From Escherichia coli (GTDB taxonomy: Bacteria; Pseudomonadota; Gammaproteobacteria; Enterobacterales; Enterobacteriaceae): a DNA stretch of 64,000 nucleotides. The stretch lies in NCBI RefSeq assembly GCF_024502345.1, contig NZ_JALDNN010000001.1; one strand, 5' to 3'. Of this stretch, positions 29,043 through 60,497 are shown one piece after another. Every line of letters begins with the position of its first letter. Within the stretch, counting starts at the first letter, position 1. The translations under genes and the position numbers were made by a program. The notes under the pieces were generated by a model. The model searched no databases. It was not told the DNA's origin and saw only the letters and a list, made by a program, of their open reading frames with translations.

Positions 29043-29069
29043 AAAAAATAAGCCCGTGTAAGGGAGATT
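29043..29069. other. attR: Probable P2 attachment core (prophage/host junction) overlapping the cyaR 3' end
   Basis: AAAAAATAAGCCCGTGTAAGGGAGATT matches the 27-nt P2 att core as recalled; lies exactly where phage sequence gives way to host backbone. Confidence 0.5.
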
Positions 29070-29129
29070 ACACAGGCTAAGGAGGTGGTTCCTGGTACAG
29101 CTAGCATTTTATGGGTTATGTTTTTCAGC
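29043..29129 (-). ncRNA. cyaR: CyaR (RyeE) Hfq-dependent sRNA
   Basis: Minus strand reads GCTGAAAAACATAACCCATAAAATGCTAGCTGTACCAGGAACCACCTCCTTAGCC...terminator hairpin and U-run; sits between yegQ and the ogr end as in K-12. Confidence 0.8.
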
Positions 29130-29213
29130 GAAACGGATGATAACCTTAATAAATGCAGCTGTATGTGATCGGTTTCTAAGAATTTTCCATCCGGGAAAAA
29201 TAATCGAAATTAA

Positions 29214-38606: not shown

Positions 38607-41600
38607 TTACGCCTCCTCTTCATGACGGGCAAAGCGGCTTTTGGTCCACAATGCCAGGCGGTCGAACAGCAAATAAATCACCGGCGTGGTAAACAGCGTC
38701 AGCACCTGGCTGATAATCAGACCGCCGACCATGCCGATACCTAACGGACGACGCAGTTCCGCGCCGACCCCGGTACTCAACATCAGCGGCAGCGCGCCAA
38801 GCAGAGCCGCCAGAGTGGTCATCAGGATCGGACGAAAACGCAACAGACAAGCCTGGTAGATTGCCTCGCGCGGCGACATGCCTTGCTCGCGCTCGGCAGC
38901 CAGCGCGAAGTCGATCATCATGATGGCGTTCTTCTTCACGATACCGATCAGCAAAATAATGCCGATAATCGCAATCACATCCAGTTCGCTACCAGCAATC
39001 AGCAACGCCAGCAGTGCGCCAACCCCTGCGGTGGGTAGCGTCGAGAGAATGGTGATCGGGTGAATAAAGCTCTCGTACAGAATGCCGAGCACGATATACA
39101 TCGCCACCACCGCCGCGACAATCAGCCAGACAGTGCTGCCCAGCGCCGACTGGAAGGCGAGGGTGCTGCCCTGGAACTGCGTGGTGATATCCACCGGCAG
39201 ATTCAGCGTCTTTTCGGTGTCCATAATCGCCTGCACCGCATCGCCCAGCGAATAGTTATCCGGCACGTTAAAGGAGATGGTCGTTACCGGGAACTGATCC
39301 AGATGGTTGATGGAGAGCGGCGCAAAACGCTGCTCAATTTTGGCAATTGAGCTTAACGGCACCACGCCACCATCGCTGCTGGTCAGGCGAATGGTATCCA
39401 GCGCCGCGAGGCCTGGGGTATTTTCGGTGTTGTGTTCCAGCACCACGCGATACTGGTTAGCCTGAGTATAAATAGTGGAAATCAGCCGCTGACCAAACGC
39501 GTTGTACAGGGCGTTATCGACATCCGCCATACTGATCCCCAGACGGCTGGCGCTGTCGCGATCAACATTGACATACGCCACCAGCCCTTTGTCCTGCCAG
39601 TCGCTGGAGACATCAGAAAGCTGTGGTAGTTGCTGGAGTTTTTCCATCAACTGTGGCACCCAGGTACTGAGCGCATCCAGTGACGTGGCCTGCAAGGTAA
39701 ACTGGTACTGGGTGCGGCTGACCTGAGTATCGATGGTCAGGTCCTGCGTTGGTTGCAGGAAGAGATCGACGCCCGGCAATTTATCCACCGCCGTTTGCAG
39801 ACGGGCGATGACTTTTTGCACCCGATCATCACGTTCATCCAGCGGTTTGAGGTTGATCTGCAAACGCGCACTGTTCAGCGACGGGTTAGTGCCATCAACG
39901 CCAACAAATGAGGTCAGACTTTGCACTGCCGGATCCTGCAAAATCACGTCCGCGACCTGGCGTTGCCGCTGGGCCATATTGGCAAAGGAGCTGGATTGCG
40001 GTGCCTGCAAAGTGCCCTGAATAATGCCGTTATCCTGTACCGGGAAGAAACCTTTCGGAATGAACACCCACAATAGAACGCTAAGCAGCAGCGTGCTGAG
40101 CGCCACGCTTAAGGTCAGCCACGGATGATTCAGCACTTTCGCCAGTCCACGACCATAGGCGGCGATTATCTTGTCGAACATTTTTTCCGAGGCACGGGAG
40201 AAGCGGTTCTGTTTACGCAACGACTCCTGGCTGAGCATCCGTGCGCACATCATCGGTGTCAGGGTTAGCGACACCACGGCTGAGATTAAAATCGCTACCG
40301 CCAGGGTAATAGCAAATTCGCGGAACAGTCGCCCGACGATATCGCCCATAAACAGCAGTGGGATCAACACCGCAATCAGCGAGAAGGTCAGCGAGATAAT
40401 GGTAAAGCCGATTTCACCTGCGCCTTTGAGCGCCGCCGCCAATGGTTTTTCGCCTTTTTCGATATAGCGGGAAATATTTTCGATCACCACGATGGCGTCA
40501 TCGACCACGAACCCGGTGGCGATAGTTAACGCCATCAGCGTCAGGTTATTGATTGAAAAATCGAGAAACACCATGACCGCGAAGGTGCCGATTAACGACA
40601 GCGGCACTGCGACGCCGGGAATGATGGTCGCCGGAATATTGCGCAAAAACAGGTAGATAATCATGACTACCAGCGCGATAGCCATCATCAATTCAAACTG
40701 AGTATCATCGACGGATGCGCGGATATTGGTGGTACGGTCAGAAAGTACCGTCACCTTCACCGATTTCGGCAGACTCTCGGTGAGCTGTGGCAGCATCTGC
40801 CGGATGCTGTCGGCGGTGGAGATAATGTTAGCACCGGGCTGGCGCTGAACATTCATCACAATGGCCTGTTCTTTGTTCGCCCATGCGCCGAGCCAGCTGT
40901 TTTCTGCACCTTGCTCTACGGTTGCGACATCGCCCAGACGAATCGGCGCGCCGTTCTGGTAGGCGATAATCAACTGGCGATATTCTTCCGCAGATTGCAT
41001 TTGGTCATTCGCGGAAAGCGTAACCGCGCGGGAAGGGCCGTCGAGGCTACCTTTTGCCGAGTTAACGTTAGCGCCGGTAATGGCGGTGCGCACGGTTTCG
41101 CTGGTCAGGCCGAGGGCGGCAATCGCCTGAGCGTTAAGTTTGACGCGAACAGCCGGACGCTGGCCGCCGGAAAGCGTCACCAGGCCGACGCCGGAAATCT
41201 GCGAGATTTTCTGCGCGACGCGGGTTTCCACCATATCTTCCACTTGCGTCATCGGCATGGCTGTTGAGGTGACGGCGAGCGTCATGATCGGCGGATCTGC
41301 CGGGTTCACTTTGCTGTAAACCGGCGGGTTAGGCAGATCGCTCGGCAACAAGTTGGTCGCAGCGTTAATCGCGGCCTGCACTTCCTGCTCGGCGACATCG
41401 AGCGGTAATGTTAGCTGGAACTGTAAAGTGATAACTGACGCACCGCCGGAACTTTGCGACGACATCTGTTTCAGGCCAGACATCTGCCCGAACTGGCGTT
41501 CGAGCGGCGCGGTAACGGCAGAGGTCATGACATCCGGGCTCGCACCTGGGTAGAGCGTGACCACCTGAATGGTCGGATAGTCCACTTCCGGCAGCGCCGA

Positions 41601-41729
41601 AACGGGCAGGGCGCGATAACCGATAATCCCGGCGAGTAAGATCGCCACCATCAGCAGCGTGGTGGCCACAGGACGCATAATAAACAGGCGCGACGGGCCG
41701 CCTGTGCTGCCCGGGGGTAACACCTGCAT
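38607..41729 (-). CDS. mdtB: RND multidrug efflux pump subunit MdtB (1040 aa)
   Basis: 1040-aa RND permease, paralogous to MdtC. Confidence 0.95.
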
Positions 41730-42976
41730 CAGGAGCGAGCTCCTTTTTTCGCGTATTCGCGGCTGGTGGCTTTCTCTTCCGGAGTGGTGGCGCTCTGGGC
41801 TTCCACCACTTCCACTTTCGCCCCTTCGGTCAGGCGATCAATGCCGTCTGTCACCACGCGATCGCCCGCAGAAATACCTGCGCGGATCACCACTTTCTGA
41901 CTGTCCTGAATGCCCGGCGTCACCAGATGTTTGCTGACCTTGTTTTCGCTATTCAGCACCCAGACAAAATGGCCTTCATTGCCCATTTGCAGGGCGGCGG
42001 TGGGGATCACTACGGCGTTTTGTTCGGTGTCGACTAACATGCGCGCGTTAACAAACTGATTGGGAAACAGCGCATCATCCTGATTATTAAAGCGTGCTTT
42101 CACTTTAATCGTACCGGTAGTGGCATCGATTTGGTTATCGAGACTTAACAGCGTGCCTTCACTTAATTTCTTCGAGTTGGTGCGATCCCAGGCTTCTACC
42201 ACCAGCGGTTTTCCGGCTTTTTGCGCCTGCACGACGGTAGCGATATCGCTTTCCGGCAGGGTAAAGAGCAAATCGATAGGATGCGTCTGGGTGATCACCA
42301 CGATCCCGGTGGTATCACCACTGGAGATTTGGTTACCAACATCAACCTGCTTGAGACCAACGCGACCATCGACTGGTGCGGTAATACGGCTCCAGTCGAG
42401 TTGCAGCTGCGCGCTGGCGACGCTTGCTTCATCAGCCTTAATGGTGCCTTCGGTTTCACTGACCAGCGCCTGTTGGGCATCCAGCTCCTGGCGGGAGACG
42501 AGATTGGTTTTTGCCAGTTGCTGATAACGCGCCAGATCACGGCGGGCGTTGGTAAGCGTGGCTTTATCTTTTGCCAGTTGGCCCTGGGCTTGTGCTAATG
42601 CAACTTTGAACTGGCTGGGGTCAATTTCTGCCAGTAAATCGCCTGCTTTGACCTGCTGGCCTTCCTGGAAATGTAACGCCATCAGTTGACCGTCCACGCG
42701 GCTGCGCACCGTAACAGTATTAGCAGCGGTAATGGTGCCAAGCCCGGTGAGGTAACGCGGAACTGCCTGTTCTACGGCGGTCGCCGCCTGAACCGGGGCT
42801 AATGGGCCGGAACGCATACCACGGCGACCACCCGCTGGCGATTGCTGCGCTTGTTTCGTCGCCCCTGGGGCTGCACTCTGGGAGTCATTGCGGCCTTGCC
42901 AGAACCAGAATGCGGCGATGGCGGCGATAACCACCACGATTACGATTACCCAACGGGATTTATAACTGCCTTTCAT
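41729..42976 (-). CDS. mdtA: Periplasmic adaptor (membrane fusion) protein MdtA (415 aa)
   Basis: Start placed at [19 protein letters not shown] within ORF 41729-43123. Confidence 0.9.
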
Positions 42977-43199
42977 CGTTAAGAGTTTCTCTTCCTGAAA
43001 CGTTTCGCGGAATGATACTAGTGTAGCCAGCCAATAAGGGAGAAAAATGGAGGAATTATGAAACACTATCGGGAATCGTCTGAATGGCGGGCACATTTGC
43101 GAGCACGCATCCAGTAATAACACAGGAAACTATTTTATCTACGCGTTAGCGATAGACTGCTTGCATGGCGAAAGGAGGTAAGCCGACGATTTCAGCGGG

Positions 43200-43340
43200 A
43201 CGCTGAAACGGGAAAGCCCCTCCCGAGGAAGGGGCCATAAATAAGGAAAGGGTCATGATGAAGATACTCATCATCGTGGTGCTCTTAGTGATTAGCTACC
43301 CAGCATACTAAGACTACCAGGGCGGGGGAAACCCCGCTCT
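43200..43340 (-). ncRNA. Sib antisense sRNA, unit 1 (approximate boundaries)
   Basis: Sib RNAs are about 140 nt and fully antisense to ibs; the hairpin upstream of ibs on the plus strand would serve as the minus-strand terminator. Confidence 0.45.
43255..43311 (+). CDS. Ibs-family type I toxin peptide (MMKILIIVVLLVISYPAY)
   Basis: Tiny hydrophobic ORF with SD-like aaggaaaggg upstream, in repeat unit 1. Confidence 0.7.
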   Translation: MMKILIIVVLLVISYPAY

Positions 43341-43527
43341 ACCCTCACTCCTGAAAGTATGCCTTCACGTTCAGAATGTCAATCCGCAGGCTTTGCAGTC
43401 TGCGATCCTGCCAGCAAATATTCTTTGCGAGACGTTACGCAATAATCACAGAGGAAACTATTTTGTTCACGCGTTAGCGATAGACTGAATTCAGGGCGAA
43501 AGGAGGTAAGCCGACGATTTCAGCGGG

Positions 43528-43668
43528 ACGCTGAAACGGGAAAGCCCCTCCCGAGGAAGGGGCCTTAAATAAGGAAAGGGTCATGATGAAGTGGATCATC
43601 ATCGTGGTGCTCTTAGTCATAAGCTTCCCGGCTTACTAAGACTACCAGGGCGGGGGAAACCCCGCTCT
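43528..43668 (-). ncRNA. Sib antisense sRNA, unit 2 (approximate boundaries)
   Basis: As unit 1. Confidence 0.45.
43583..43639 (+). CDS. Ibs-family type I toxin peptide (MMKWIIIVVLLVISFPAY)
   Basis: Same architecture in repeat unit 2. Confidence 0.7.
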   Translation: MMKWIIIVVLLVISFPAY

Positions 43669-43855
43669 ACCCTCACTCCTGAAAGTATGCCTTCACGATA
43701 AGATTGTCAATCTGCAGGCTTTGCAGTCTGCGATCCTGCCAGCAAATATTCTTTGCGAGACGTTACGCAATAATCACACTGGAAACTATTTTATCCGCAA
43801 GTCAGCGATAGACTGCATGCATGGCGAAAGGAGGTAAGCCGACGATTTCAGCGGG

Positions 43856-43996
43856 ATGCTGAAACGGGAAAGCCCCTCCCGAGGAAGGGGCCTTAAATAA
43901 GAAAAGGGTTATGATGAAGCACGTCATCATACTGGTGATACTCTTAGTGATTAGCTTCCAGGCTTACTAAGAACACCAGGGGGAGGGGAAACCTCT
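43856..43996 (-). ncRNA. sibA: Sib antisense sRNA, unit 3 (approximate boundaries)
   Basis: As unit 1. Confidence 0.45.
43911..43970 (+). CDS. ibsA: Ibs-family type I toxin peptide (MMKHVIILVILLVISFQAY)
   Basis: Same architecture in repeat unit 3; closest to the K-12 IbsA sequence as recalled. Confidence 0.7.
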   Translation: MMKHVIILVILLVISFQAY

Positions 43997-44189
43997 CCCT
44001 AACCCTCACTCCTGAAATTATGTCACTCCGCCCTTAGTGTCAATCGACGGCTCTCCGTTCTTGCGAGGCGAATAGCAAAATTTTCTGCGCCGCCGGGACT
44101 AATTCTGAAAGTTTCTTCGTTTGCTCTTATTTCATTATTGCAGTCGGTATGATACCGGACCTCAATAATTCTCTAAGAAAGGATTTCTT

Positions 44190-44849
44190 ATGAGCGAACA
44201 AATCACGTTTGCCACCAGCGATTTTGCCAGTAACCCGGAACCACGTTGCCCCTGCATTCTGCTGCTGGATGTTTCTGGCTCGATGAGCGGCAGACCTATT
44301 AATGAACTTAACGCCGGATTGGTTACCTTTCGTGATGAACTGCTTGCTGATCCGCTGGCTTTAAAAAGAGTGGAACTCGGCATTGTGACGTTCGGCCCGG
44401 TGCATGTGGAACAACCCTTTACCAGCGCCGCTAACTTTTTCCCGCCCATCCTGTTTGCCCTGGGGGATACGCCTATGGGGGCCGCCATTACCAAAGCCCT
44501 GGATATGGTAGAGGAGCGGAAACGTGAGTACCGCGCAAATGGTATTTCGTATTATCGCCCGTGGATTTTCCTGATCACCGATGGCGCTCCAACCGATGAG
44601 TGGCAGGCTGCCGCCAACAAAGTGTTTCAGGGGGAAGAAGATAAGAAGTTTGCCTTCTTTTCCATCGGTGTTCAGGGGGCGGATATGAAGACGCTGGCAC
44701 AAATCAGCGTTCGTCAGCCTTTGCCACTGCAGGGATTACAATTCCGTGAACTGTTTAGCTGGTTATCCAGTTCGCTGCGTTCGGTTTCCCGCTCCACGCC
44801 GGGAACGGAAGTTGTGCTGGAAGCGCCAAAAGGCTGGACGTCAGTGTGA
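44190..44849 (+). CDS. yegL: von Willebrand factor A domain protein YegL (219 aa)
   Basis: 219 aa; vWA MIDAS-like DxSxS motif [11 protein letters not shown]. Confidence 0.9.
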
Positions 44850-45606
44850 GCTGGCGTCTGGTTTATGCATCCGCTGTTGGAACGTCGCACATTAGCGCTG
44901 ATTTACCTTGTCAGGATGCCTGCCAGATGCAGGTTGCCTGGCTAAATGACCAGCAGCCATTACTGGTGATGTTCCTTGCTGATGGCGCAGTAGCGTTTCG
45001 CAGGGAGGAGAAGGCGCGAAGCTCGCCGTCAATGAAGCGATGACGTTTATGGTGCAAAAAGTACAGGACGGTGAATTGGGGCTTAATGATGTCCTCGCCA
45101 CAAATATGGTACTGACCATTCGTCAACGACTTTTTGCCGAGGCAGAAGCCAAAGCATTAGCAGTTCGCGATTTTGCCTGCACGTTTCTGGGATTGATTTC
45201 ATCGGCTAACGGCACATTGATTATGCAAATTGGCGACGGCGGTGTAGTGGTGGATTTTGGTCACGGTCTGCAATTACCGCTTACGCCGATGGTGGGTGAA
45301 TATGCCAATATGACGCATTTCATTACCGATGAAGATGCCGTTTCCAGACTGGAAACTTTCACCAGCACTGAGCGTGTGCATAAAGTTGCAGCATTTACGG
45401 ATGGTATCCAGCGACTGGCGTTAAATATGTTGGATAATTCTCCGCATGTGCCTTTCTTTACCCCTTTTTTCAATGGACTGGCGGCAGCAACGCAGGAACA
45501 GCTCGATTTATTACCTGAATTGTTAAAGCAGTTTTTGTCCAGCCCGGCGGTAAACGAGCGTACCGATGATGATAAAACGTTGGCACTGGCGCTGTGGTTA
45601 CCATGA
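44846..45606 (+). pseudogene. yegK: PP2C-like phosphatase gene yegK/pphC, split by a frameshift into 65-aa and 188-aa ORFs
   Basis: ORFs 44846-45043 and 45040-45606 lie in different frames; together they span 761 nt, not a multiple of 3. Confidence 0.6.
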
Positions 45607-47543
45607 AACCCACTTTATATACTGCTACTGGTGAGTGCGTTACGCCAGGCCGTGAACTGGGCAAAGGTGGCGAAGGCGCGGTTTATGATATCAATGAGTT
45701 TGTCGATAGCGTCGCCAAGATTTATCACACGCCGCCACCCGCCTTAAAACAGGACAAACTTGCCTTTATGGCTGCGACAGCTGACGCGCAGTTGTTGAAT
45801 TATGTCGCCTGGCCGCAGGCAACGCTTCACGGTGGACGAGACGGAAAAGTTATCGGTTTTATGATGCCAAAAGTTTCTGGTAAAGAACCGATTCATATGA
45901 TCTATAGCCCGGCACATCGTCGCCAGAGTTACCCTCATTGTGCGTGGGATTTTCTACTCTATGTTGCGCGCAATATTGCTTCATCTTTTGCTACGGTTCA
46001 CGAGCACGGGCACGTCGTGGGGGACGTAAACCAGAACAGCTTTATGGTAGGTCGCGACAGCAAAGTGGTGTTGATCGATAGTGACTCCTTTCAGATTAAC
46101 GCCAATGGCACACTGCATTTATGCGAAGTCGGCGTGTCGCATTTTACGCCGCCAGAGCTACAAACCTTGCCATCATTTGTCGGTTTTGAACGTACCGCGA
46201 ATCACGATAATTTTGGCCTTGCGTTGCTGATTTTTCACGTCTTGTTTGGTGGGCGGCATCCTTATTCTGGTGTGCCGCTTATCTCTGATGCGGGTAATGC
46301 GCTGGAGACGGATATTGCCCATTTCCGTTATGCCTACGCGTCAGATAATCAGCGACGTGGTTTAAAACCGCCGCCACGATCTATTCCGCTGTCGATGTTA
46401 CCGGGCGATGTTGAAGCCATGTTTCAGCAGGCATTCACGGAAAGTGGCGTGGCAACGGGGCGTCCGACGGCTAAAGCGTGGGTAGCGGCACTGGACTCTC
46501 TACGCCAACAGTTAAAGAAATGTACCGTTTCAGCAATGCATGTTTACCCCGCTCATTTGACTGACTGCCCGTGGTGTGCGCTGGATAATCAAGGTGTTAT
46601 CTATTTTATTGATCTTGGTGAAGAGGTCATTACCACCGGCGGGGATTTTGTGCTGGCGAAAGTCTGGGCGATGGTGATGGCGTCAGTAGCACCGCCAGCA
46701 TTGCAATTGCCATTACCCGATCATTTCCAACCGACTGGCAGGCTGCTTCCTTTAGGCCTGTTACGGCGCGAATACATCATTCTGATTGAGATCGCACTGT
46801 CAGCGTTATCGCTGTTGCTTTGCGGCCTTCAGGCAGAACCGCGTTATATTATTTTGGTTCCTGTGCTGGCGGCTATCTGGATTATTGGCAGTCTGACAAG
46901 CAAAGCTTATAAAGCAGAAATCCAGCAACGCCGTGAGGCATTTAATCGCGCGAAAATGGACTATGACCATTTAGTCAGCCAGATCCAACAGTTGGGCGGG
47001 CTGGAAGGTTTTATCGCCAAACGGACGATGCTCGAAAAAATGAAGGACGAAATTCTCGGGTTACCGGAAGAAGAAAAACGTGCTCTGGCAGCACTTCACG
47101 ACACTGCAAGGGAACGGCAGAAGCAGAAGTTTCTGGAGGGATTTTTTATTGATGCTGCCTCTATTCCCGGCGTTGGCCCTGCGCGTAAAGCGGCGTTACG
47201 GTCTTTTGGTATTGAAACAGCCGCGGATGTTACCCGTCGTGGGGTTAAGCAAGTTAAAGGGTTTGGCGACCATCTGACCCAGGCGGTTATCGACTGGAAA
47301 GCGAGTTGCGAACGCCGTTTTGTGTTCAGGCCGAACGAAGCGGTAACGCCAGCAGACAGACAGGCGGTAATGGCGAAAATGGCCGCCAAACGACATCGGC
47401 TGGAAGCCGCATTGACAGAGGGCGCGACAGAGTTGCAGCGATTCCGCCTTCATGCTCCAGCACGGACCATGCCGTTGATGGAACAGTTACGTCAGGCAGC
47501 AGAAAAACTGGCTCAGGCGCAGGCAGATTTAAGCCGCTGCTGA
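45594..47543 (+). CDS. yegI: Eukaryotic-like Ser/Thr protein kinase family protein YegI (649 aa)
   Basis: 649 aa; kinase-like N-terminal region, central TM segment, C-terminal helix-hairpin-helix-like region. Confidence 0.9.
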   Translation: MVTMKPTLYTATGECVTPGRELGKGGEGAVYDINEFVDSVAKIYHTPPPALKQDKLAFMAATADAQLLNYVAWPQATLHGGRDGKVIGFMMPKVSGKEPIHMIYSPAHRRQSYPHCAWDFLLYVARNIASSFATVHEHGHVVGDVNQNSFMVGRDSKVVLIDSDSFQINANGTLHLCEVGVSHFTPPELQTLPSFVGFERTANHDNFGLALLIFHVLFGGRHPYSGVPLISDAGNALETDIAHFRYAYASDNQRRGLKPPPRSIPLSMLPGDVEAMFQQAFTESGVATGRPTAKAWVAALDSLRQQLKKCTVSAMHVYPAHLTDCPWCALDNQGVIYFIDLGEEVITTGGDFVLAKVWAMVMASVAPPALQLPLPDHFQPTGRLLPLGLLRREYIILIEIALSALSLLLCGLQAEPRYIILVPVLAAIWIIGSLTSKAYKAEIQQRREAFNRAKMDYDHLVSQIQQLGGLEGFIAKRTMLEKMKDEILGLPEEEKRALAALHDTARERQKQKFLEGFFIDAASIPGVGPARKAALRSFGIETAADVTRRGVKQVKGFGDHLTQAVIDWKASCERRFVFRPNEAVTPADRQAVMAKMAAKRHRLEAALTEGATELQRFRLHAPARTMPLMEQLRQAAEKLAQAQADLSRC

Positions 47544-58699: not shown

Positions 58700-59167
58700 A
58701 GTAAGTACAAAACCTATTCGTTGTATGACAAATGTCACAATTCGATCATGGATAAATCGGGGCAAAAATGCAATGTTGCAGCACTATTTATCTCATATTA
58801 TTTGAGGGTAATAACCTCACATTATCCCTGAATTAAAAGTGGTAATAATAAAACATTATTTAAGAAATATCGCATGTGGAGACACTATATTAAATATTGT
58901 CAACCTAAAGAAACTCCTAAAAACCATATTGAATGACACTTAATATAATTCTTAAAAATAGCCAATTACCGAATTGTTATCTTGCCTGCTATTCCGTTAG
59001 CTGTAACACTTCCTCCTGCATTATTGGAAAGCCAATATTCAATTACCATAATGTCACCTTATATTCGGAAGTTAATTTCCGTAATAACCCTTTCTCATCA
59101 ACGACTGCATGCTGAGAGGGTGTGAAAAATTAAACTAAATCAGTGTATTGGTAGCTAAAAAGCCAGG

Positions 59168-59179
59168 GGCGGTAGCGTG
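59168..59179 (+). promoter_or_regulatory. ops element (GGCGGTAGCGTG) within a JUMPstart-like leader upstream of wza
   Basis: Exact 12-mer GGCGGTAGCGTG about 180 nt upstream of the wza start codon. Confidence 0.6.
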
Positions 59180-59357: not shown

Positions 59358-60497
59358 ATGATGAAATCCAAAATGAAATTGATGCCATTATTGGTGTCAG
59401 TAACCTTGATAAGCGGTTGCACAGTACTTCCGGGCAGCAATATGTCGACGATGGGCAAAGACGTCATCAAACAGCAGGACGCTGATTTCGATCTCGACAA
59501 AATGGTGAATGTTTATCCGCTGACCCCGCGCCTGATTGACCAATTACGCCCACGCCCGAATGTAGCGCGCCCCAATATGACGCTGGAAAGTGAGATCGCG
59601 AATTACCAGTATCGCGTCGGGCCGGGGGACGTTCTTAATGTCACCGTCTGGGATCACCCGGAACTCACCACGCCAGCCGGTCAGTACCGCAGCTCCAGCG
59701 ACACCGGCAACTGGGTACAGCCTGACGGCACTATGTTTTACCCGTATATCGGCAAGGTCCACGTAGTCGGGAAAACGCTCGCTGAAATCCGCAGTGATAT
59801 TACCGGGCGCTTAGCGACGTACATCGCTGACCCGCAGGTGGACGTTAATATCGCCGCCTTCCGCTCACAAAAGGCCTATATCTCCGGTCAGGTGAATAAA
59901 TCCGGTCAACAGGCGATCACCAACGTGCCACTGACTATTCTCGACGCCATCAACGCCGCAGGTGGCCTGACCGACACCGCTGACTGGCGCAACGTGGTGT
60001 TAACACACAATGGTCGTGAAGAACGCATTTCTTTGCAGGCGCTGATGCAAAACGGCGACCTCAATCAGAACCGACTGCTTTATCCCGGCGATATTCTCTA
60101 CGTGCCGCGTAATGATGATCTGAAAGTGTTTGTGATGGGTGAAGTGAAGAAACAGAGCACCCTGAAAATGGACTTTAGCGGCATGACCCTGACTGAAGCC
60201 CTGGGCAATGCTGAAGGCATCGACATGACCACCTCCAACGCCAGCGGCATCTTTGTCATTCGTCCGCTGAAAGGCGAGGGCGGGCGTAACGGCAAGATTG
60301 CCAATATCTACCAGCTGGATATGTCCGATGCGACGTCGCTGGTGATGGCGACAGAATTCCGCCTGCAACCTTATGACGTGGTGTATGTCACCACCGCCCC
60401 GGTTTCCCGCTGGAACCGTCTGATCAATCAGTTGCTGCCAACTATTAGCGGTGTCCGTTACATGACGGATACAGCCAGCGACATTCATAACTGGTAA
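59358..60497 (+). CDS. wza: Colanic acid export outer membrane lipoprotein Wza (379 aa)
   Basis: Signal peptide with lipobox LISGC; 379 aa. Confidence 0.95.

Follow-up and report, generated by a model that had tools for sequence, protein, structure and literature searches.

The intergenic region between mdtA and yegL in the window, i.e. the whole stretch of 64,000 nucleotides of Escherichia coli DNA that was analysed, holds one tandem array of ibs/sib units (Table 1), for which Tandem Repeats Finder (TRF) reports a period of 328, 2.8 copies, 90% matches and a score of 1456. The flanking genes are named after the annotation of near-identical E. coli records, and the array occupies the location of the K-12 sibA and sibB genes, lying between mdtA and yegL with its ibs open reading frames (ORFs) divergent from mdtA. 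At 1213 bp, the mdtA-yegL gap is longer by one unit than that of K-12 MG1655 (887 bp). In the annotation of MG1655 exactly two units are found in this gap, sibA/ibsA beside yegL and sibB/ibsB beside mdtA, in agreement with the first-pass annotation of the window, which gave two units for K-12 and named three units there as a refutation.

Table 1. Features of the ibs/sib array and its flanks, in positions of the window
Feature	Position	Strand	Basis and remarks
mdtA (flank)	41729..42976	-	ORF list and annotation of matching E. coli records; divergent from ibs ORFs
Tandem array	43115-44022		TRF
Repeat unit 1, mdtA-proximal, 328 bp	43115..43442		TRF
Repeat unit 2, middle, 328 bp	43443..43770		TRF
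Repeat unit 3, yegL-proximal, ibsA/sibA type	43771..44050		TRF (2.8 copies); partial final copy, runs into unique sequence
ibs ORF 1, 18 aa, MMKILIIVVLLVISYPAY	43255..43311	+	Translation; same peptide as WP_012767742.1 in GF3-3 and ATCC 43889
ibs ORF 2, 18 aa, MMKWIIIVVLLVISFPAY	43583..43639	+	Translation; same peptide as WP_012767741.1
ibsA ORF, 19 aa, MMKHVIILVILLVISFQAY	43911..43970	+	Translation identical to K-12 IbsA; WP_010723109.1 in related genomes
RF00113 match, unit 1	43240-43382	-	140.1 bits
RF00113 match, unit 2	43568-43710	-	140.1 bits
RF00113 match, unit 3	43896-44043	-	145.5 bits
Predicted Sib RNA 1, SibB-like, 136 nt	43211..43346	-	Alignment to annotated K-12 sibB
Predicted Sib RNA 2, SibB-like, 136 nt	43539..43674	-	Alignment to K-12 sibB
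Predicted Sib RNA 3, SibA, 142 nt	43866..44007	-	Alignment to K-12 SibA
Putative Sib promoter -35 hexamer TTGACA (units 1, 2, 3)	43377..43382; 43705-43710; 44038-44043	-	Read from sequence
yegL (flank), vWA-domain protein	44190..44849	+	ORF list and annotation of matching E. coli records

The units are unequally related, which agrees with the divergence between copies noted by the first-pass annotation: units 1 and 2 share 93.0% identity, with 23 differences between them, while unit 3 is about 72% identical to either (about 27% different). In strain GF3-3, units 1 and 2 are each 100% identical to their counterparts in the window. Identity to the K-12 ibsB unit is 96.7% for unit 1 and 94.5% for unit 2, while unit 3 shares 93.4% identity with the K-12 ibsA unit. 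Alignment to the K-12 sibA/sibB locus, which had been proposed as a check, therefore gave unit identities of 93–97%, and by these alignments unit 3 is assigned to K-12's ibsA/sibA, while units 1 and 2 are assigned as two diverged SibB-type units. The K-12 ibsA/sibA and ibsB/sibB units (QUAD/SIB repeats) share the locus, orientation and unit architecture of the window, but their number is two rather than three, and the IbsB peptide of K-12 (LL..F) differs from both Ibs-1 (IL..Y) and Ibs-2 (WI..F) of the window.

Each unit carries one intact ibs ORF of 18–19 codons, and the encoded peptides are very hydrophobic, with an MMK/MMR start and an aromatic/polar tail (..SFxAY). Translation returned exactly the three Ibs-like peptides that had been listed by the first-pass annotation. 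All three are RefSeq 'Ibs family toxin' entries (records L005 and L050), and WP_012767742.1, the peptide of ORF 1, carries the annotation 'type I toxin-antitoxin system Ibs family toxin'. In the three ORFs the Shine-Dalgarno/ATG context AAG(G/A)AAAGGGT(C/T)ATGATGAAG is kept, and it is conserved out to Citrobacter and Salmonella.

The Sib genes that were expected on the other strand are present there as three full-length matches (1–147) to the Rfam family RF00113 (SIB_RNA), with E values of 1e-30 to 1e-31 and, for all three genes, scores more than 2.5 times the Rfam threshold (gathering score 56). Each predicted Sib RNA lies on the strand opposite to its ibs gene, covers the ORF and the initiation region, and has the sequence and structure of the family; predicted Sib RNA 1, for example, spans the entire ibs-1 ORF and its translation initiation region. 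Predicted Sib RNA 1 folds with -58.1 kcal/mol (z = -3.8) and ends in a 3' terminator hairpin, while predicted Sib RNAs 2 and 3 fold with -61.7 kcal/mol (z = -4.6) and -60.1 kcal/mol (z = -4.5), respectively, and none of 200 shuffles was as stable as the predicted RNAs. The fold common to all three consists of a closing stem, three internal hairpins, an unpaired TRD2 stretch, a strong GC hairpin and UUUCC. Sib3 is a mosaic, as its body is 94% identical to K-12 SibA while its terminator hairpin is of the SibB type, unlike that of K-12 SibA itself, and this SibB-type terminator is a first hint of exchange between units. Weak matches to the Rfam 'L31-Firmicutes leader' in the ibs 5' region were below threshold (E = 0.6–1) and were judged to be due to chance.

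A TTGACA hexamer stands at the head of each RF00113 match, the first six positions of the model being TTGACA, and is followed by 17 nt, by TACTTT or TAATTT and, 7 nt further on, by the G that is homologous to the annotated +1. This geometry points to TTGACA/TA(C/A)TTT as the putative Sib promoter. A strict consensus scan of 42900–44250 for promoters and terminators called no site within the units. The ibs promoters are non-consensus and were called neither by the strict scan of 42900–44250 nor by a relaxed -35/-10 scan of the ibs strand. As the Sib promoters and terminators and the ibs promoters fall outside the scan thresholds, they are assigned only by geometry, by homology to the K-12 annotation and by the published ibsC start. 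The mapped ibsC start leaves an 18-nt 5' overhang past the Sib 3' end (Han et al. 2010, PMC2943612). With the published ibsC start as its sole guide, the predicted ibs start is placed about 58 nt upstream of the ATG, behind TTGCAT-N18-GACGAT; the predicted ibs promoters are weak.

TRF, the three ORFs and the three RF00113 matches bear out the claim of three tandem ibs/sib units upstream of mdtA. Very probably, then, three complete ibs/sib type I toxin-antitoxin modules stand in tandem in the mdtA-yegL gap of this E. coli chromosome and make up one allele of a variable locus.

The first-pass annotation had also remarked that the array could be mistaken for a CRISPR-like repeat, a concern that does not hold up: whole genes of 72–93% identity recur here every 328 bp between mdtA and yegL, and there are no short repeats with unique spacers. 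CRISPR arrays have direct repeats of about 23–50 bp, unique spacers of similar size and usually a leader and cas genes. A REP-like reading of the array was likewise considered and rejected.

Over-production of Ibs is toxic and constitutive Sib RNAs repress the toxins in the K-12 homologues, in the summary of Fozo et al. (2008) given by Han et al. (2010, PMC2943612). For recognition of the ibsC mRNA, SibC has two independent domains, namely TRD1 (+46 to +68, pairing with the ORF) and TRD2 (+99 to +115, pairing with the translation initiation region), which sit in variable parts of the Sib family and determine cognate specificity, and a contiguous TRD2 helix of 25 bp sufficed to redirect SibC towards ibsD (Han et al. 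2010, PMC2943612). In a preprint, an Ibs toxin from the yqiK-rfaE locus of Salmonella (the ibsD/ibsE position), there called IbsA, is described as inhibiting the Fo-F1 ATP synthase. If the published K-12 homologues are taken as the model for toxicity, for repression and for what TRD1 and TRD2 do, each unit of about 328 bp would produce, from its plus strand, a weakly expressed mRNA for a hydrophobic Ibs membrane toxin of 18–19 aa and, from its minus strand, a constitutive Sib RNA of about 136–142 nt with full complementarity to the ibs ORF and the ribosome-binding region. The Sib RNA would pair with its own ibs mRNA, the TRD1 loop with the 3' half of the ORF and the TRD2 single-stranded junction with the translation initiation region. 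As this pairing would block translation and induce degradation of the mRNA, it is proposed that no Ibs toxin is made during normal growth.

The predicted fold of the window RNAs is also that of K-12 SibC, with TRD1 in a hairpin loop and TRD2 single-stranded before the terminator. SibC/ibsC belongs to the same family, RF00113, but is a single unit at fau-serA with TRD sequences different from those of the window. The IbsC peptide, which we take to be MMRLVIILIVLLLISFSAY, is also different from the window peptides. Within the window, the unit-specific TRD1 segments (ATGCTGGGTAGCTAATCAC, AAGCCGGGAAGCTTATGAC and AAGCCTGGAAGCTAATCAC) differ from one another at 3–5 of 23 nt, and the predicted TRD1 duplex energy is about -40 kcal/mol for cognate pairs versus -22 to -28 kcal/mol for non-cognate pairs. 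TRD2 duplex energies gave no clear separation of cognate from non-cognate pairs, K-12 SibA and SibB included, and the contiguity of pairing was therefore used instead, as in Han et al. (2010). By that measure units 1 and 2 differ in TRD2 by one edge mismatch and share an identical run of 26 nt through it. With TRD2 near-identical, strict cognate-only repression may fail between these two units, and cross-repression between them is plausible.

The frequency of the three-unit state was examined with two queries. With the array query (1.3 kb, comprising the array and the adjoining ends of mdtA and yegL; megablast against 5,426 complete E. coli genomes), the locus was found in 5,419 of the 5,426, and among 40 evenly spaced rows the number of annotated ibs genes was three in 18, two in 16, four in 3 and one in 2. 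The flank-only query joins 1.5 kb of mdtB/mdtA to 1.5 kb of yegL/pphC, so that the gap is measured regardless of its content, and its unit counts are computed from record spans; 60 evenly spaced records of 5,423 gave two units in 25, three in 20, four in 8, five in 2, one in 1 and other values in 4. In these evenly spaced samples three units thus account for 20/60 (33%) and 18/40 (45%), two units for about 40%, four for about 10%, and one or five for few. Annotation confirms one unit in two records (L003 and L053), two units in K-12 and Nissle 1917, three in GF3-3, NCTC9064, ATCC 43889 and strain 18-4, four in DETEC-S586, STS63-2-E and KMi025 (with IS30 within the array), and five in ARS-C301. 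The three-unit state is ordinary and among the two commonest in complete E. coli genomes.

Exactly the three peptides of the window occur between mdtA and yegL in GF3-3 and in the O157:H7 strain ATCC 43889, in the same order (WP_012767742.1, WP_012767741.1 and the IbsA entry WP_010723109.1) and under the PGAP label of Ibs family toxins. Both differ little from the window: the 1.3-kb query matches GF3-3 at 99.5%, while the flanking genes of ATCC 43889 are about 97.5% identical to those of the window and identity in the 5' segment is 98.3% for its unit 1 and 95.0% for its unit 2. Seven Ibs genes have been counted in O157:H7 Sakai versus five in K-12, and tandem duplication is typical of such type I loci (Fozo et al. 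2010, PMC2887945). Given the PGAP annotation of GF3-3 and ATCC 43889 together with these published counts and duplications, the three-unit array is already known, being an annotated allele in many RefSeq genomes, O157:H7 included. The unusualness implied by the first-pass annotation is therefore not upheld, as three units are commonplace and annotated with identical peptides.

That annotation had further read the third unit as an expansion of copy number relative to K-12, a reading that is not supported. Species were compared by a pattern scan, with one genome for each, and the loci were then examined by tblastn and blastn. Upstream of mdtA, many Citrobacter species, Salmonella enterica subsp. 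diarizonae, Kluyvera, E. albertii, E. whittamii and Escherichia sp. MOD1-EC7003 have a single unit, while Pseudocitrobacter and Escherichia sp. E1V33 have two. From the single unit of related species it follows that one unit is ancestral for the family and that amplification is of older date and specific to the Escherichia lineage. Beyond E. coli the state is thus mostly single-unit, so expansions must have occurred at some time, and K-12 does have two units; both facts speak for a recent, lineage-specific expansion of a K-12-like two-unit state. Such an event is nevertheless unlikely, as three units are present in roughly 33–45% of the sampled complete genomes from many sources, as the 7% difference between units 1 and 2 exceeds most flank divergence within E. 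coli, and as the same Ibs variants are present in other Escherichia, e.g. MMKWIIIVVLLVISFPAY in E. whittamii.

The K-12 ibsB unit itself points in the opposite direction. Between -135 and +13 it agrees with window unit 1 at each of 13 diagnostic sites, and between +36 and +122 it agrees with window unit 2 at 7, so that there is one main switch point. When the 5' sites that possibly mark the first array position are excluded, two switches remain among 13 sites, and the probability of so few is about 0.008 by a combinatorial estimate, if the sites are independent. In arrays of three to five units, the penultimate unit (18-4.2, STS63.3 and ARS-C301.4) shows 98.7–100% identity to the body and 3' part of the K-12 ibsB unit. 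The K-12 ibsB unit is thus a recombinant mosaic of the two SibB-type units seen in the window, the only such unit that K-12 retains, which fits a contraction by unequal crossover deleting internal units and runs against the claimed expansion; the direction of copy-number change is here read from mosaic patterns in 13 arrays and not from a phylogeny. Among these 13 arrays at least six SibB-type peptide variants occur in differing orders, and several of them occur also in other Escherichia species. Given the shared variants and differing orders, the multi-unit state is old and the array both grows and shrinks. Unit number, which ranges between one and five in E. coli strains, probably changes by unequal homologous recombination between units.

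Short-read assembly can go wrong at tandem repeats of about 330 bp, and the neighbouring pphC carries a 1-bp frameshift (deletion) that is a possible sequencing error, yet a mis-assembled repeat with really two units is extremely improbable. Collapse or expansion during assembly is unlikely because the units are told apart by numerous diagnostic differences (23 for unit 1 versus unit 2, about 27% for unit 3 versus the others). Independently finished genomes have the same array, GF3-3 with units 1 and 2 at 100% identity, and the 1.3-kb query is matched by 308 records at 99% or more. It is very unlikely, albeit less so, that at least one of the three units is a decaying relic whose sequence persists without expression or toxicity. 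Decay of chromosomal type I loci is known from some strains (Fozo et al. 2010, PMC2887945), one unit of strain KMi025 has lost its 5' UTR to an IS30 insertion, and K-12 tolerates the deletion of sibA (Han et al. 2010, PMC2943612). In the window, by contrast, all three ORFs are intact with their Shine-Dalgarno/ATG context, and every Sib gene retains an intact TTGACA hexamer and terminator hairpins and scores well above the Rfam threshold.

Other chromosomal type I modules, namely ldr/rdl (LDR) and zorO/orzO, are likewise tandem in one intergenic region with a strain-variable copy number (PMC2887945; PMC7232551), but their toxin and RNA sequences are unrelated and their antitoxins pair elsewhere on the mRNA. 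The ibs/sib array may tentatively be viewed as a recombination cassette, in which unequal crossover and gene conversion would reshuffle the SibB-type variants, at least six in number, into new combinations of Ibs peptide and Sib specificity and in which, in addition, neighbours sharing TRD2, such as units 1 and 2, would cross-repress one another as a partly redundant antitoxin network in place of insulated pairs; taken as a whole, this proposal is possible but doubtful. The literature search yielded no relevant paper on ibs/sib in connection with mdtA/yegL, and neither a reshuffling cassette nor cross-repression was found described for the mdtA-yegL locus in the searchable literature.

The Ibs/Sib family, its mechanism, its tandem duplication and its copy-number variation among strains are all published, and the array of the window has little significance apart from being annotated correctly. 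K-12 does not represent the reference state of the mdtA-yegL locus and probably carries a contracted array. The number of units, from one to five, and their order constitute a fast-evolving marker relative to the flanking genes, while the near-identical TRD2 in adjacent units would provide a natural test of the published two-domain model of specificity.

The best match to the genes flanking the ibs/sib array (window 41477–45689) among the complete E. coli genomes searched is strain NCTC9064 (99.0%), and only 4 complete E. coli records share these flanking genes at 99% or more. The 1.3-kb query, which covers the array together with the bordering ends of mdtA and yegL, has its top match in a different finished three-unit strain, GF3-3 (99.5%), while the unit composition of the NCTC9064 array is unlike that of the window, which argues that the array and its flanking genes have different histories.

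Exchange among units is indicated within the array itself. The SibA-type RNA of the window carries a SibB-type terminator hairpin, GGCCCCTTCCTCGGGAGGGGCC, whereas the corresponding hairpin of K-12 SibA is AGCCCTCTTCTCCGGGAGAGGCT, which points to gene conversion involving units of the A and B types. The ibsB/sibB unit of K-12 (L001), as compared with window 43115–43770, is a mosaic, where the 5' part matches unit 1. The 3' half of the ibsB ORF and the region downstream of it correspond instead to unit 2, or to the penultimate unit in longer arrays, a pattern which suggests that the two-unit K-12 array arose by contraction through unequal crossover. In E. coli KMi025 (locus L007, 8110–9262), the four-unit array is interrupted by an IS30 element, and the second ibs gene has lost its 5' UTR/promoter region to this insertion, a natural knockout of the toxin expression signals of one unit.

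Each unit of the window contains the 20-nt block GGCGAAAGGAGGTAAGCCGA, which includes the perfect Shine-Dalgarno-like sequence AAGGAGGT and does not differ among the units, even though the overall identity of unit 3 to the other two is only about 72%. This block is retained in most E. coli units examined and lies about 70–90 nt upstream of every ibs ATG, in the inferred ibs promoter spacer and downstream from the Sib terminator.

Features in and around the array and elsewhere in the window
Feature	Position	Strand	Remark
20-nt block, unit 1	43166–43185	+	
20-nt block, unit 2	43494–43513	+	
20-nt block, unit 3	43822–43841	+	
SibA-type RNA terminator hairpin	43866–43910	-	SibB-type
pphC (yegK, PP2C phosphatase)	44846–45606		1-bp deletion at about 44990
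pphC ORFs	44846–45043; 45040–45606		result from deletion
CyaR/RyeE sRNA	29046–29131	-	Rfam, 100.7 bits
JUMPstart element	59141–59179	+	Rfam, 57.3 bits

Beside the array, pphC is identical to the NCTC9064 sequence throughout, apart from a 1-bp deletion (GCAGGTAGC to GCA-GTAGC, with NCTC9064 and K-12 as reference), which reflects either a true pseudogene or a sequencing error. An Rfam scan of the whole window at the gathering threshold detected, apart from the three Sib genes, only CyaR/RyeE and a JUMPstart element, the latter located upstream of an ORF at 59358–60497.

Among the loci from a one-genome-per-species motif scan (L010–L049), five (L023, L026, L031, L044 and others) lack an ibs ORF; these come from unrelated metagenome-assembled genomes and appear to be chance matches. 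Conservation of the Shine-Dalgarno/start motif of ibs, AAGRAAAGGGTYATGATGAAG, extends over Escherichia, Citrobacter, Kluyvera, Phytobacter, Pseudocitrobacter and Salmonella diarizonae. In the genomes from outside Escherichia, the mdtA-adjoining unit is always of the 19-aa IbsA-like type, and the 18-aa Ibs type appears to be restricted to Escherichia.
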